A stretch of 64,000 nucleotides of DNA from a virus (IMGVR_UViG_3300037455_000372:11710-75709), one strand, 5' to 3'. Counted from the stretch's first letter, positions 778 through 63,936 are shown. Notes: a model not told the origin generated them from the sequence alone. Made by a program: numbers and translations.

Positions 778-788
778 TTGCTATATTT
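778..788 (+). promoter_or_regulatory. TTGCTATATTT promoter-like motif upstream of CDS 794
   Basis: first copy of motif repeated >15x in window, always 10-40 nt upstream of a start codon. Confidence 0.5.
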
Positions 789-793
789 ACTAT

Positions 794-1060
794 ATGGATA
801 ACAACTTCAACAAATACACTAAACGCCACCTCAAGATCGTCCAGAGCGGCCAGACAATCTTCAGCAAGGACGTATATGTTTGCCTAGAGCATACCCACTA
901 CTGCAACGTCGAGTCGCCGTATTATTACTATTCAGATAGAAACAAGCGTGTACTCAAGATCAAGTTGGCTGAAGACGACAAGGAACTGAGCTACATCAAC
1001 CTCGGTTTCGGCGACACGTTCTTCGTAACCGTTCCACCTTCTAAAGAAACCGGTATCTAA
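794..1060 (+). CDS. hypothetical protein (88 aa)
   Basis: ORF directly after promoter motif; stop abuts next gene. Confidence 0.5.
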   Translation: MDNNFNKYTKRHLKIVQSGQTIFSKDVYVCLEHTHYCNVESPYYYYSDRNKRVLKIKLAEDDKELSYINLGFGDTFFVTVPPSKETGI

Positions 1061-1065
1061 CTCCT

Positions 1066-60383: not shown

Positions 60384-61865
60384 TCACGTTTGGCTATACA
60401 CTCTAACGGTCAACCCAAGTTTTCCCGATATATTCATATTCGGTTCCTTGATAATAGTGAATCGCAATAACTTTGCACCGTACTTTATCTGGACATCGGA
60501 ACAACACCTAGTTCCGTTAGCCAACTCGTAAGCCGCATAATACGTCAACTGGTAATGAGTATCGGTTCCAATCGTAACGTTCGTATATGTTTTCTTTCCG
60601 ATAAAGGATGATGCGTTTTGCCCACCGCTTCCATACACAGCATCACTAGTAATAACGATCTCCGAAGCAGTGATGTTACTATTTCTCGAACAAATGGTAA
60701 CACTAGCCGCATTCATACTACGGACACAAGATTCAATAACAAAATCGGTACTACTAATGATTGTGGTATACGGGCTGCTACTACCACTACCAGACACCCA
60801 CACGGTATTTTTTGACGTTCGTCTTCCATAGCCATCGTTATCGGCAAGCATACCGTAATAGCTCTTCGACGGGTCATTCGCCACACCATATATAACCATA
60901 TTATATTGCAAGCCGATCGTCATTGTCATATTTGGATAGCTTGAATTGTACGCAAAATTGATTACGCTAATGCCAACAGTCGGACAGTATACATTTACAT
61001 AACTGCAATTAGCTTGAGCCTTATACAAATCGGTTCTAACCAATGCCTTCGCCGCGCCATCAGAATGAAATTTTTGGTCAAGTGCAGACCCACCCGAAAT
61101 TAGGTTCATTTTACATATTTTCGGATTTGCGTCAATATCATCGCGCAAATCATTTAAATTCGGATCACTACCTGATGGTAAAATAGCTCCCATCGAATAC
61201 CAACCTTGATCAGTCTCTACTCTAACCAATTCGTCACCACTGACAATACCATTATTTATCTTAAAATCAATTAGATAATCAATACTCGCGTACATATCAA
61301 TATTCGGGTATGACGACCGCCCAGCGGCATCATTAGAATATGTGTTACCGACAGACGCATAAACACGGTCTGTATGTAAGTACCAATAAAGTGAACTGGT
61401 AGATTGTGGTCCGCTACTGCCATTAGAACCAGTTGCAAACGATGATGGCGATGCGGGGAAGTTAATTTTTGATACACGGCTCCCTTGGCCAGCCGGACCA
61501 ATTGTAACAAGTCCGCCATAACCCTCACTGTACATTATACCACCATAGTTACCATATATCATCTTATTGTGGCCAACAACATCAAATTCTCGTTTGTACT
61601 CGTGATCAATAGGCTTAATTTCAATCGTGGAGCGATCGCTATACGATATCGAATTAGGTGTATAAACCGCAATAGCTTGCGAGAAATTATCCGACAAGGG
61701 TCGATTCAACGCGATACACTGGTCAATGGCAGATTCCTCACCGAACGCCGATATAGTAGGAGACGCCAAATAATTGCAGTTGATTGTATTAACCATTACC
61801 GTTTTAAGCTTAGAATTATGCTGCGTTCTAGCAGTCCTATCGTTTCGTGTTGCAAGATGAATCAT
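60384..61865 (-). CDS. tail fibre / receptor-binding-like protein (Ser/Gly/Asn/Thr-rich, 493 aa)
   Basis: composition typical of fibre proteins; AT-rich codon usage unlike the bulk of the window. Confidence 0.5.
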   Translation of the reverse strand: MIHLATRNDRTARTQHNSKLKTVMVNTINCNYLASPTISAFGEESAIDQCIALNRPLSDNFSQAIAVYTPNSISYSDRSTIEIKPIDHEYKREFDVVGHNKMIYGNYGGIMYSEGYGGLVTIGPAGQGSRVSKINFPASPSSFATGSNGSSGPQSTSSLYWYLHTDRVYASVGNTYSNDAAGRSSYPNIDMYASIDYLIDFKINNGIVSGDELVRVETDQGWYSMGAILPSGSDPNLNDLRDDIDANPKICKMNLISGGSALDQKFHSDGAAKALVRTDLYKAQANCSYVNVYCPTVGISVINFAYNSSYPNMTMTIGLQYNMVIYGVANDPSKSYYGMLADNDGYGRRTSKNTVWVSGSGSSSPYTTIISSTDFVIESCVRSMNAASVTICSRNSNITASEIVITSDAVYGSGGQNASSFIGKKTYTNVTIGTDTHYQLTYYAAYELANGTRCCSDVQIKYGAKLLRFTIIKEPNMNISGKLGLTVRVYSQT

Positions 61866-61874
61866 AGATTATCC

Positions 61875-63884
61875 TTAAAGCAGATAAATTGTGCTAACAT
61901 TGTTTCCATAAGTTCCACTGATATCGATGTCATACAAACGATGTGTAGGACCAGTCGACCACCCATAAACAGTTAACTCAATCTCATTATAACTATTAGA
62001 AGCAAGCGGTCTAAATACTAAAGTTGCGGAATTATAACCCTTTAAAAAATATCGAGTTGACGCATTTGTTTCCGCGCGATCCAAATATACAATCTTACCA
62101 GCGTTATATGCCGCTTGTACCTCATTATACGTAGTCACGCCAAAAGTCACTTTTAATGCGCTTTGTAATTCAACCCACTTGACAGCTCCGTTATCATCAA
62201 TACCAAGCACCTTTCCAGCATCGGTCGATGCAAACGTCGGTGCCAAATAACCAATTGGATTCGTGCTAGACGGATTGGATGGCCAATATCGGTATGCGCC
62301 ACTAGCCGAGAACAAATGAATCGACGCACCCACATCCGTAGATGAACAAGTTAACGACATAGTTGAAGCTTCGGGTTTAGCAGAATATACTCCTTCCGTT
62401 AATGTAAAAGCAGCCGGTAATGAGCATTGTGTCGGAACACCATTGCTATTCAAGTATATAGGCGTAGTGCTATTGCCAGCCCCGCCAGACGCAACAACAG
62501 AAGTCGTAGACGAATCGTATTTTAGCAACGCATTAGCGGTGATACTAGAACCCATAAATGGAATGGTCTTACCACCAAGCGTAAATTGGTAACCGTTAGA
62601 CACCTTCTTAGCCGCAAGTAAATTAGAACCGCTAACTTGCGCATAGCTTTCTTGATTATCACCAGATACAGTTGTCACAAATGGAAATACAGCCGACGAA
62701 TTTGTATTTATAGTTGTAGACTTGACACCAACTGTATTCTTAGTGTCGTCATCAGTCCACGGAACGTTTACATATGCTTGATTATTCGATAACTGCACTG
62801 GATAATTCTTACCAGATTGAGTATAGCCAATCCTAATGCCGCCAATCGTGCTTGAACTTGCCGTTGGGATAGAACGCCAAGTACCATCGTGTCCTAAAAA
62901 TTCCGTCGTCTTCGACTGATCAATCGATAGAGTCGACGTTGAGGAATACCAATATTCGGGACTGGTGCCGTAACAGAACATAATTTTGTCACCGGTAACC
63001 GGTCCGCTTGTACGGCTTGGAGCACTAGAGTTTTTACTGGCTGCTACAATACTAGCTGGAACCAACTTGCCGCCAACGGCAGTTGACAGATTTACTAATT
63101 CACCATCTACGTAGCTAGACGACGTTTCAGGATGAACTTTGGCAAAGGTAATCGAAATATCAGAGAAAGTAGCTGACAACTGTCCATTGGTGGCTTGATG
63201 CAAATAAGTGATGGTACGGTCAGGGTCAGTACGAAGATCGCCTACACTGTCGTGCGAGCAAGTCACTTCGTCAACCAATGTACTAGTAGGAACATTGACA
63301 TATGCTTGTTTTGACACTGGATCAAGCTCGACAGCATAATAGTCACCAAAGGAACTGTAACCAATCTTAATACCACCATAAGTCGAGGATGTGGCTTCGC
63401 TCAAGCGAAGTTCACCGCGTGTGCCTACGTCACTAGAACTACTAATATAGAGACCTTCACCGCAGTTCACCGACACATAGGAATATTCCGAATGGCCAGA
63501 CGGAGAGACCTTCTTCAAGCCGCTGTAGAAACTTTCACCCAAAACTGTATCGTTGTTTTTAGAAGTAACCATCAATCGGTTAAGAGCAACCGTATCATCG
63601 TCTACCTTGACGGTAATTGAGTCGATAGCCGCCTTAACGCCGACACCGTTAATAGGTGCCGAACTTGGATCACTGTAAGTGAAAGTCGAAATGGTGTCGC
63701 TCTGTACAGTGACAATCTTACCATTCGAATCCCGGTACACTCGCTTGACATACTTTCCGGCATCTTCGGAATTCGCACTGGAATACAAGGTATCAAGACC
63801 CATATTGTCTTGGGCTATCTTCTTTTCGTCGGCATTCAAACTCTGTGTAACGCTCCACAGTACGCCAGTATTACGTTTTGTCAT
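61875..63884 (-). CDS. tail fibre protein with internal repeats (669 aa)
   Basis: repeated blocks GGIKIGYSSFGDYYAVELD...QAYVNVP and GGIRIGYTQSGKNYPVQLSNNQAYVNVPW; Ser/Thr/Gly-rich; AT-rich. Confidence 0.55.
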   Translation of the reverse strand: MTKRNTGVLWSVTQSLNADEKKIAQDNMGLDTLYSSANSEDAGKYVKRVYRDSNGKIVTVQSDTISTFTYSDPSSAPINGVGVKAAIDSITVKVDDDTVALNRLMVTSKNNDTVLGESFYSGLKKVSPSGHSEYSYVSVNCGEGLYISSSSDVGTRGELRLSEATSSTYGGIKIGYSSFGDYYAVELDPVSKQAYVNVPTSTLVDEVTCSHDSVGDLRTDPDRTITYLHQATNGQLSATFSDISITFAKVHPETSSSYVDGELVNLSTAVGGKLVPASIVAASKNSSAPSRTSGPVTGDKIMFCYGTSPEYWYSSTSTLSIDQSKTTEFLGHDGTWRSIPTASSSTIGGIRIGYTQSGKNYPVQLSNNQAYVNVPWTDDDTKNTVGVKSTTINTNSSAVFPFVTTVSGDNQESYAQVSGSNLLAAKKVSNGYQFTLGGKTIPFMGSSITANALLKYDSSTTSVVASGGAGNSTTPIYLNSNGVPTQCSLPAAFTLTEGVYSAKPEASTMSLTCSSTDVGASIHLFSASGAYRYWPSNPSSTNPIGYLAPTFASTDAGKVLGIDDNGAVKWVELQSALKVTFGVTTYNEVQAAYNAGKIVYLDRAETNASTRYFLKGYNSATLVFRPLASNSYNEIELTVYGWSTGPTHRLYDIDISGTYGNNVSTIYLL

Positions 63885-63936
63885 CGGTAAGCCTCTATAT
63901 TTCTACACTTTGCAGTTTATATGATTTGGCCATATA

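Follow-up and report, generated by a model that had tools for sequence, protein, structure and literature searches.

The 64,000-nucleotide (nt) stretch of viral DNA IMGVR_UViG_3300037455_000372:11710-75709, taken as a whole and referred to here as the window, is part of a very large rumen phage belonging to a clade with genomes of ~350–475 kb. It covers no more than ~20% of the phage genome, and the same phage is present in four public assemblies. The window carries 39–41 transfer RNA (tRNA) genes, all on the minus strand between 36649 and 60042 and covering nearly all amino acids. Its auxiliary genes encode a glutamine-dependent NAD synthase (NadE), RtcB, an RNA ligase, a C5 methylase, a type I dehydroquinase, a chorismate mutase, NIF3, an M29 aminopeptidase, SPFH and rhomboid proteins, and a radical SAM protein; many other window proteins have no family match. 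Nucleotide and protein searches of 50,697 GenBank phage records with a 22-kb stretch, the 1043-aa and 507-aa proteins, and the 187-aa peptidase gave no match, so there is no cultured relative to indicate the host. The subject of this report is an 11-mer, TTGCTATATTT, that recurs upstream of genes across the window.

Occurrence and structure of the 11-mer

Twelve exact copies of TTGCTATATTT are found in the window, compared with 0.03 expected from dinucleotide-preserving shuffles, none of which (0/100) reached this count. If one mismatch is allowed there are 18 copies, compared with 1.0 expected. The word is both the most frequent and the most over-represented 11-mer of the window, with tRNA T-loop words ranking behind it. 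A first-pass annotation of the same DNA had described a single promoter-like word reused more than 15 times upstream of genes, and these counts bear it out. The positional bias that such a role would entail is also present, every copy being intergenic and oriented towards its downstream gene. A position weight matrix made from the 18 aligned sites, with spacer columns zeroed and a threshold of at least 12 bits, gave 28 sites (1.1 in Markov shuffles), all of them intergenic and in the same orientation as the next gene or tRNA.

Some individual members of the set needed revision. Positions in the first-pass annotation were right to within 1–2 bases (28915 becomes 28916, and 29621 becomes 29623), and the copy at 48970, given there as exact, is present but has one mismatch (TTGCTATATTC). 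Among the variants it proposed, the one at 52525 has two mismatches (TACCTATATTT), yet is a good promoter candidate because of a perfect TTGACA 17 bp upstream; those at 55531 (TTGCTATACCG, with three mismatches and a hexamer lacking its final T) and 63893 (TAGAAATATAG, a poor match) are not convincing. Copies at 708(-), 2314(-), and 21503(-) are additions to that list, as are TG-less or weaker sites at 731(+), 4063(-), 14363(+), 44438(-), 49745(-), 54280(-), and 60296(-).

The 11-mer parses as T-TG-C-TATATT-T, with a TG one base before a TAnnnT hexamer, as in an extended -10 element. The hexamer is TATATT in 17 of the 18 copies and TATAAT in the other. TG precedes it in 17 (the exception, at 2314, reads TTAC), the intervening base is nearly always C, and the base after the hexamer is an almost invariant T (17/18). 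A second conserved block lies exactly 13 nt upstream of the 11-mer, equivalent to a 17-bp spacer to TATATT, with the composition T (18/18), T (14/18), G (16/18), A/C, C/A, A (12/18); six copies have an exact TTGACA here. A generic sigma-70 scan of the window picked out 12 sites that agree with the consensus in at least 11 of its 12 positions; the spacer is 17 nt in 11 of them. Ten of the 12 are TTGACA-17-TATATT and one is a perfect TTGACA-17-TATAAT; four have no TG but a perfect -35. Nothing is conserved among the 18 sites past the -35 and extended -10 positions, and the motif is therefore not a longer repeat. By its sequence, the 11-mer is the extended -10 of sigma-70-type promoters, mostly with a TTGACA-like -35 at a 17-bp spacing.

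The word is not peculiar to this phage. A pattern scan of IMG/VR for TTGACA-N13-TTGCTATATTT found more than 116 loci from many environments, mostly in unrelated phages, so that the word by itself is simply a generally good sigma-70 promoter. Loci were counted as relatives only if they had several copies of the motif or homologous genes. A literature search for the word TTGCTATATT returned unrelated primer sequences only.

Gene starts, leaders and transcription units

Start codons were first reported 10–40 nt from the motif. Measured from its first base, the distance is 16–37 nt for 15 of the 18 copies; the exceptions are 21503(-), followed by ~300 nt without an open reading frame (ORF), 31307(-), with a 166-nt leader, and 48970(-), where the gene start has been corrected. 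The suspicion that several ORFs had been started too far upstream also proved right. ORFs 8854-9669, 23867-24877, and 48369-48980 begin at the motif's own TTG, and the longest ORFs at 1712-2329, 35621-36160, and 38984-40258 run through a promoter, so starts chosen for maximum ORF length are too long.

The predicted start of transcription lies 7 nt past TATATT. In seven of the 18 sites an ATG is found 6–7 nt after the hexamer (binomial P = 7e-7; Table 1), at the predicted +1, and these copies are thus predicted to yield leaderless messenger RNAs (mRNAs) beginning with the A of the ATG. The same spacing stands out more generally: over all window genes, TAnnnT hexamers peak at a 6-nt gap before the start codon, with nine cases compared with ~1–2 at neighbouring gaps. 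Eleven sites have a leader of 13–24 nt that contains little besides an AGGA, GAGG, or GGAG Shine-Dalgarno (SD) core. Some of the remaining matrix sites precede tRNAs, with a leader of ~10 nt for tRNA-Met (44422). The mature 5' end of tRNA-Gln (54246) is within 1 nt of the predicted start of a TTGACA-17-TATATT promoter (54176-54280, minus strand). This tRNA end may be made by transcription initiation itself, with no leader for RNase P.

Several promoters directly adjoin intrinsic terminator hairpins, which in some cases lie at the -35 position (36420-36390, 43068-43038). Three or four promoter pairs are arranged back-to-back as TATAGCAA-N13-TTGCTATA, with each -35 position overlapping the extended -10 of the other, which suggests that polymerase binding to the two is mutually exclusive.

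Table 1. Promoters of the window, with back-to-back pairs from the window and its relatives (L133, L035). The 11-mer column gives the position and class of TTGCTATATTT copies; distances to ATG are counted from the end of the hexamer where no leader is given.
Element	Span	Strand	11-mer	Downstream feature and remarks
TTGTCA-N17-(TTGT)TATATT-T	708..737	-	708, one mismatch	ATG 701 at 7 nt, leaderless predicted; divergent from 778 promoter
TG-less TTGACA-N17-TATATT	731..760	+		Tandem, upstream of 778 promoter
TTCTCA-N17-(TTGC)TATATT-T	759..788	+	778, exact	ATG 794 at 6 nt, leaderless predicted
TTACTATATTT, poor -35	2314..2343	-	2314, one mismatch	ATG 2308 at 6 nt, leaderless predicted; DUF5662 protein gene
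TTGCTATACT	4063..4092	-		17-nt SD leader to ATG 4040; divergent partner of 4087, its -35 position overlapping the extended -10 of that promoter (TATAGCAA-N13-TTGCTATA)
(TTGC)TATATT-T	4068..4097	+	4087, exact	14-nt SD leader to ATG 4117; back-to-back with 4063(-)
(TTGC)TATATT-T	7798..7827	-	7798, exact	ATG 7792 at 6 nt, leaderless predicted; 74-aa ORF 7571-7792
(TTGC)TATATT-T	8835..8864	+	8854, exact	14-nt SD leader to ATG 8884
TTGACA-N17-(TTGT)TATATT-A	14344..14373	+		Motif at 14363; leader ~139 nt
TTGACA-N17-(TTGC)TATATT-T	21161..21190	-	21161, exact	ATG 21155 of 1043-aa gene at 6 nt, leaderless predicted; terminator 21215-21198 just upstream
TTGACA-N17-(ATGC)TATATT-T	21503..21532	-	21503, one mismatch	ORF-free structured ~300-nt unit ending at terminator 21215-21198
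TTGCGA-N17-(TTGC)TATATT-T	24867..24896	-	24867, exact	20-nt SD leader to ATG 24841
TTGCAA-N17-(TTGC)TATATT-T	28916..28945	-	28916, exact	19-nt SD leader to ATG 28891
TTGACA-N17-(TTGT)TATATT-T	29623..29652	-	29623, one mismatch	24-nt SD leader to ATG 29593; terminator 29702-29675 just upstream
TTGACT-N17-(TTGC)TATATT-T	31307..31336	-	31307, exact	166-nt ORF-free leader
TTGCAT-N17-(TTGC)TATATT-T	36139..36168	-	36139, exact	ATG 36133 at 6 nt, leaderless predicted
(TTGC)TATATT-T	36378..36407	-	36378, exact	ATG 36372 at 6 nt, leaderless predicted; hairpin 36420-36390 at -35 position
TTGACA-N17-(TTGC)TATATT-T	40229..40258	-	40229, exact	19-nt SD leader to RtcB gene, ATG 40204
TTGCAC-N17-(TTGC)TATATT-T	43029..43058	-	43029, exact	13-nt SD leader to ATG 43010; overlaps hairpin 43068-43038
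TTGACA-N17-(TTGC)TATAAT, perfect consensus	44071..44100	-	44071, one mismatch	15-nt SD leader to ATG 44050
TTGACA-N17-(TAGC)TATATA	44438..44467	-		~10 nt upstream of tRNA-Met 44349-44422
TTGACA-N17-(TTGC)TATATT-C (TTGCTATATTC)	48970..48999	-	48970, one mismatch	SD leader, ATG ~14 nt past predicted transcription start 48964; serves ORF 48369-48980 read from corrected start; terminator 49054-49021 upstream
TG-less TTGACA-N17-TATATT	49716..49745	-		Upstream of tRNA-Glu 49514-49587
TTGACA-N17-(TACC)TATATT-T	52525..52554	-		14-nt SD leader to radical SAM gene, ATG 52505
TG-less TTGACA-N17-TATATT	54251..54280	-		Predicted start at 5' end of tRNA-Gln 54176-54246
TTTACA-N17-(TTGC)TAAACT, weaker variant	60296..60325	-		Head of tRNA array, ~250 nt before tRNA-Ala 59968-60042
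Back-to-back pair, window	4063-4097			
Back-to-back pair, window	7798-7848			
Back-to-back pair, L133	6444-6478			
Back-to-back pair, L035	1542-1594			
Back-to-back pair, L035	3202-3262			

Long ORF-free stretches follow the promoters at 14363(+), 21503(-), and 31307(-). The second of these, ~300 nt at 21190-21497 (minus strand), runs from a near-perfect promoter to the terminator at 21215-21198. Its predicted RNA fold is far more stable than those of shuffled sequences (z = -5.3; none of 100 shuffles reached the same stability), and a long stem joins its 5' end to its 3' end. Rfam has no match to the region 21150-21550, and the fold makes the transcript a candidate structured non-coding RNA. 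Just past the 31307 promoter, at 31189-31289 (minus strand), there is a sub-threshold Rfam match to YrlA, a Y RNA-like family (33.5 bits, E = 7e-6, gathering threshold 69). It overlaps a weak tRNA-like match, and the genes for RtcB (38984-40204) and an RNA ligase (34962-35618) are in the vicinity. In Salmonella, rsr and rtcB are encoded together with YrlA RNAs; no protein of the Ro/TROVE type was identified.

Most of the tRNA genes lie in a block of lower GC content (41–47%, 54–62 kb), among which are scattered ORFs whose codon usage is atypical (54261-55505, 57412-58329, 60384-61865, and 61875-63884). A second lower-GC patch includes an ORF with a weak match to a transposase PHROG (5054-6349, plus strand).

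Relatives and host

The relatives include a 75-kb IMG/VR contig (L001), a 348-kb IMG/VR contig (L009, L027), and a 392-kb scaffold from ERZ28653829 (L133), and other contigs with the same NadE are up to 475 kb long. L133 is syntenic with the window over 15 genes, at 23–94% identity, and has four exact and two one-mismatch copies of the motif in 22 kb. Four of its copies are orthologous to the window promoters at 40229, 43029, 44071, and 48970, with the 11-mer kept and the spacers and flanks diverged. L001 has five exact copies in 21 kb, reading TTTTTGCTATATTTGG, only one of them with a clear -35 (TTGACG). Most lie on a terminator hairpin's T-tract; one has the leaderless spacing, and another precedes a tRNA by ~10 nt. 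In three contigs (L027, L122, and L123) the motif is kept before the orthologue of gene 8884-9669, and six copies are found in L035 and L046, of which four show the leaderless spacing. Overall, the motif is retained across relatives with 33–75% protein identity.

Other features of these contigs were recorded in passing. The orthologue of the 1043-aa gene in L001 (9903-9976, plus strand) is not leaderless, but has a 60-nt leader with a terminator-like hairpin (GGGGTAGGC...GCCTACCC-TTT) past the promoter, which may be an attenuator or a small RNA. L001 also carries 24 tRNA genes and a transfer-messenger RNA with the tag ADNAFAYAVAA, predicted by ARAGORN only (19712-20071, plus strand). L133 has two TnpB/Cas12f-like (OrfB_IS605) genes near NadE (4564-6303 and 15352-16647). 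L122 and L123, which are 96–99% identical to each other, were deposited as contigs of ruminal metagenome-assembled genomes (MAGs) under the labels Prevotella sp. and, in RefSeq, Fibrobacter sp., an example of megaphage DNA mis-binned into bacterial genomes.

Over 99% of its length the phage NadE is 68–69% identical to NAD synthases from Fibrobacter MAGs and from Fibrobacter sp. UWH4 and UWB15, whose records carry strain names and are not labelled as MAGs; every named match among the best 120 is from Fibrobacter. The Fibrobacter nadE genes are chromosomal, given their housekeeping neighbours (dapF, an aminotransferase, a sigma-54 activator, mla genes, uvrD, and hflX). The M29 aminopeptidase is 58–60% identical to Fibrobacter and Fibrobacteraceae genes, which adjoin genes for Fib_succ_major-domain proteins, alanine racemase, ssb, and sod. 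One relative is represented by a 116-kb contig that binning has assigned to a Fibrobacter MAG. In the window, 36 of 78 genes have an SD core in front of them (46%, with a background of 9%), as do 11 of 27 unique Fibrobacter genes (41%). For published comparison, a value of 37, read as per cent, is listed for the class Fibrobacteria, with 2% SD genes in Bacteroides fragilis and Prevotella oris (PMC10783764), and another paper describes SD sequences as absent in Bacteroidetes and "still detectable" in Fibrobacteres (PMC3155529). Fibrobacter (phylum Fibrobacterota) is the most probable host and not, as first suggested, a member of the Bacteroidetes, with SD use and the NadE and M29 homologues all pointing this way. 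A literature search found no paper naming a Fibrobacter phage; a pig-gut survey predicted a jumbo-phage family on Fibrobacterota (PMC12826114).

No Fibrobacter promoter consensus was found in the literature searched. A sample of 79 kb of Fibrobacter or Fibrobacteraceae chromosome was examined (four loci with 58 genes, some of them orthologous across loci). Within 60 nt upstream of these genes TATATT is 26-fold enriched (P = 2e-12) and TATATTT 50-fold (P = 4e-10); the enrichment is 9-fold for TATAAT and 2.7-fold for any TAnnnT. Individual instances include AATC-TATATT-TAGGTT-ATG before nadE in four genomes, TTTTGCTAAATTT-N7-ATG (TTTTGCTAAATT-TGCGCACA-ATG) before mlaE in three, TATTTT-N7-ATG before thiS, and, elsewhere, TTGCTACATTT-N5-ATG and TTGC-TACATT-TATCTT-ATG. 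In another, TGT-TATATT is followed by a 16-nt AGGAGG leader. An element of a different kind, the conserved sigma-54-type TTGGCATATTTTTTGCA (GG-N10-GC), is found upstream of Fibrobacter dapF (L125 ~6040-6098; L126 ~6130-6194), with a sigma-54 activator gene two genes downstream of it.

Possible readings and known systems

The copies are promoter elements that define transcription units and are most probably read by a host polymerase, as the first-pass annotation had proposed. The specific reading favoured here, to which a probability of roughly 0.68 is given, is that they are sigma-70 extended -10 promoters read by the RNA polymerase of the host, most probably Fibrobacter, with its primary sigma factor. 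The grounds for it are sequence comparison and statistics: the motif counts, the -35 and TG geometry, the bias in position, the conservation among relatives, the host-like signals, and the -10 word of Fibrobacter itself. The phage would place a near-optimal promoter before almost every transcription unit of the region, often right after an intrinsic terminator, and host RNA polymerase with the primary sigma factor would transcribe these units. A poor -35, or one replaced by a terminator hairpin, would be made up for by the TG extension. A start 7 nt past TATATT would then fall on the A of the ATG in seven of the 18 copies and would otherwise mostly open a short SD leader.

Several points weigh against this reading. 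The start sites actually used, the polymerase and sigma factor that read them, and the timing of expression are what we infer from the above, and the leaderless mRNAs, like the start sites themselves, are predicted ones. The 11-mer is kept more exactly than a generic sigma-70 consensus would demand, and, with no more than ~20% of the genome in the window, a phage-encoded sigma-70-family factor of the same specificity is possible. In the Fibrobacter sample TTGACA is only weakly enriched (4-fold, P = 0.04), and the 8 of 27 genes with TAnnnT at a 5–9 nt gap are suggestive but, in so small a sample, not significant. The host assignment is based on gene similarity and binning, not on CRISPR spacers, and an 11-kb contig of the relative binned with Fibrobacter (96–99% identical) is binned as a Prevotella sp. 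MAG. Finally, all members of one clade of jumbo phages with NAD genes are predicted to infect Bacteroidota (PMC11662467).

The last two points bear on the proposal of the first-pass annotation that the 3' part of the motif is the Bacteroidetes sigma-A -7 box (TAnnTTTG), to be accompanied by a TTTG -33 element 19–21 bp upstream, in a Bacteroidetes host; Prevotella would be an example. This is very unlikely, although parts of the resemblance are real. TATATTT does fit TAnnTTT, a run that the promoters of Fibrobacter itself share; TA follows the upstream TTG at a distance of 20 nt, within the reported 19–21 nt; all five L001 copies read TATATTTGG; and the -7 box of Segatella copri is TAnnTTTCA (bioRxiv 10.1101/2024.04.05.588293). 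The closing G, however, is not conserved, the base following TATATTT showing no preference (A 6, C 4, G 4, T 4), and a T precedes the upstream TTG in only two of the 18 copies. TTTG-N19-21-TAnnTTTG has no match in the window and eight in the 45-kb Bacteroides phage B40-8, while TTGACA-N16-18-TAnAnT has 11 in the window and none in B40-8. SD cores precede just 5 of 46 B40-8 genes (11%), which is the background level, so that the 46% of the window sets it apart from this phage as well as from the published 2% for Bacteroides and Prevotella. S. copri has no ribosome-binding consensus and few leaderless mRNAs, only ~35 transcripts among more than 2000 start sites (bioRxiv 10.1101/2024.04.05.588293). 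The bin labels are ambiguous when taken alone, but the relative concerned is binned with Fibrobacter on a contig ten times larger than the Prevotella one, and gene similarity resolves the question, since the closest named homologues of the two host-like genes are Fibrobacter chromosomal genes.

Machinery specified by the phage, with the 11-mer as the clade's own specificity, is a more serious competitor but still an unlikely one. It could be a sigma factor of the sigma-70 family encoded by the phage, or a multisubunit RNA polymerase, virion or non-virion, of the phiKZ/AR9 type, whose virion polymerase recognises early promoters that are similarly rigid and AT-rich (PMC5312081). Because the 11-mer is unusually rigid, being kept at 33–75% protein identity, and because only a fraction of the genome has been seen, some room must be left for it. 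The unrelated IMG/VR contigs L092 (11872-12684) and L106 (76-926) have a sigma-70-family gene, 27% identical to RpoD regions 2–4, directly downstream of TTGACA-N13-TTGCTATATTT. Against this, TTGACA at 17 bp with a TG is a hallmark of the sigma-70 family and not of phiKZ-type polymerases, Fibrobacter chromosomal genes are preceded by this -10 word at an equal distance from ATG, and the promoters make no distinction between tRNAs, metabolic genes, and small ORFs. Neither Pfam and PHROGs comparisons of 50 window proteins nor a search for the DFDGD motif revealed a gene for a sigma factor or RNA polymerase in the window, and an RpoD fragment used as a tblastn query found no sigma gene in ~190 kb of relatives. 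Matches of sigma or polymerase type were confined to unrelated contigs (L092, L106, and L033). Least probable, to the point of being hard to sustain, is that the 11-mer is not a promoter at all, but a repeated protein-binding site such as an operator, or part of a mobile intergenic cassette. Copies do often abut hairpins, and three or four pairs are palindromic, but the palindromes are explained as back-to-back divergent promoters, each with its gene. The lack of conservation beyond the -35 and extended -10, the fixed orientation and distance to a start codon or tRNA, and the ATG exactly at the predicted +1 in seven sites also argue against an operator or cassette.

The observations could be combined in a broader proposal, which we regard as tentative and rather doubtful as a whole. 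It is that the primary sigma factor of Fibrobacterota reads a hybrid promoter, with a TTGACA -35, a TG, and a TAnnTTT -10 that would be an evolutionary intermediate between TATAAT and the Bacteroidota TAnnTTTG. Leaderless initiation would be a major mode both in Fibrobacter and in an undescribed clade of megaphages of 350–475 kb, and could extend to the mature 5' end of tRNA-Gln at 54246. Fibrobacterota and Bacteroidota are both placed in the Fibrobacteres-Chlorobi-Bacteroidetes (FCB) group, and this shared placement may explain the TAnnTTT resemblance.

Phage reuse of a near-consensus host promoter is in itself an ordinary mechanism. What is added here is the corrected host, the large predicted leaderless fraction, and a first sequence-level sketch of Fibrobacter promoter signals (TG-n-TATATT-T, often 6–9 nt from ATG), which should be useful for genetic tools. 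For this clade of uncultivated rumen megaphages the motif is a ready promoter model. With it, wrongly called gene starts are put right in many cases and transcription units can be recognised, two of them ORF-free and possibly non-coding RNAs, and the host call is shifted from Bacteroidetes to Fibrobacter, a key rumen cellulose degrader.

Among known systems, the closest are the extended -10 (TGnTATAAT) sigma-70 promoters, among them the strong early promoters of phages that depend on the host polymerase, such as T4 and T5. They have the same TG one base before TAnnnT and an optional TTGACA at 17 bp, and many phage transcription units likewise have a near-consensus word in front of them. With the TG present, the -35 seems dispensable, and in L001 terminator hairpins take its position. 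The differences here are TATATT with an almost invariant T in place of TATAAT, the C after and the T before the TG, the Fibrobacter host, and the unusually many copies (7/18) that abut a start codon. Bacteroidota promoters (-33 TTTG, -7 TAnnTTTG, or TAnnTTTCA in S. copri) share TA-nn-TTT at the -10 and a TTG ~20 nt before the TA; in the window there is no conserved G or CA after TTT, TTGACA and TG take the place of TTTG, and the genes have SD sequences and host-like members that point to Fibrobacter. With respect to start codons, the nearest parallel is the group C leaderless promoters of Actinobacteria and Deinococcus-Thermus, with a Pribnow box 6–8 nt before the start (PMC6028130). Here too a -10 hexamer is close to the ATG, at 6–7 nt, in a large minority of first genes, and the remaining genes use SD sequences. 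The setting, however, is a phage and, in a small sample, Fibrobacter, which is not among the typical group C phyla named there, and the -35 and TG are strong, unlike those of typical actinobacterial promoters. The early promoters of phiKZ and AR9 (AAATATATATTAT-N6-G+1) also belong to giant phages and also consist of a rigid AT-rich word with TATATT, transcription starting ~6 nt downstream. They differ from those described here, which have a sigma-70-type -35 and TG and the same word before host chromosomal genes, and no split beta/beta' genes were seen in the window, at most ~20% of the genome. The mRNAs of AR9 and phiKZ are not leaderless (PMC5312081, PMC8244752), unlike those predicted for seven of the 18 copies in this phage.

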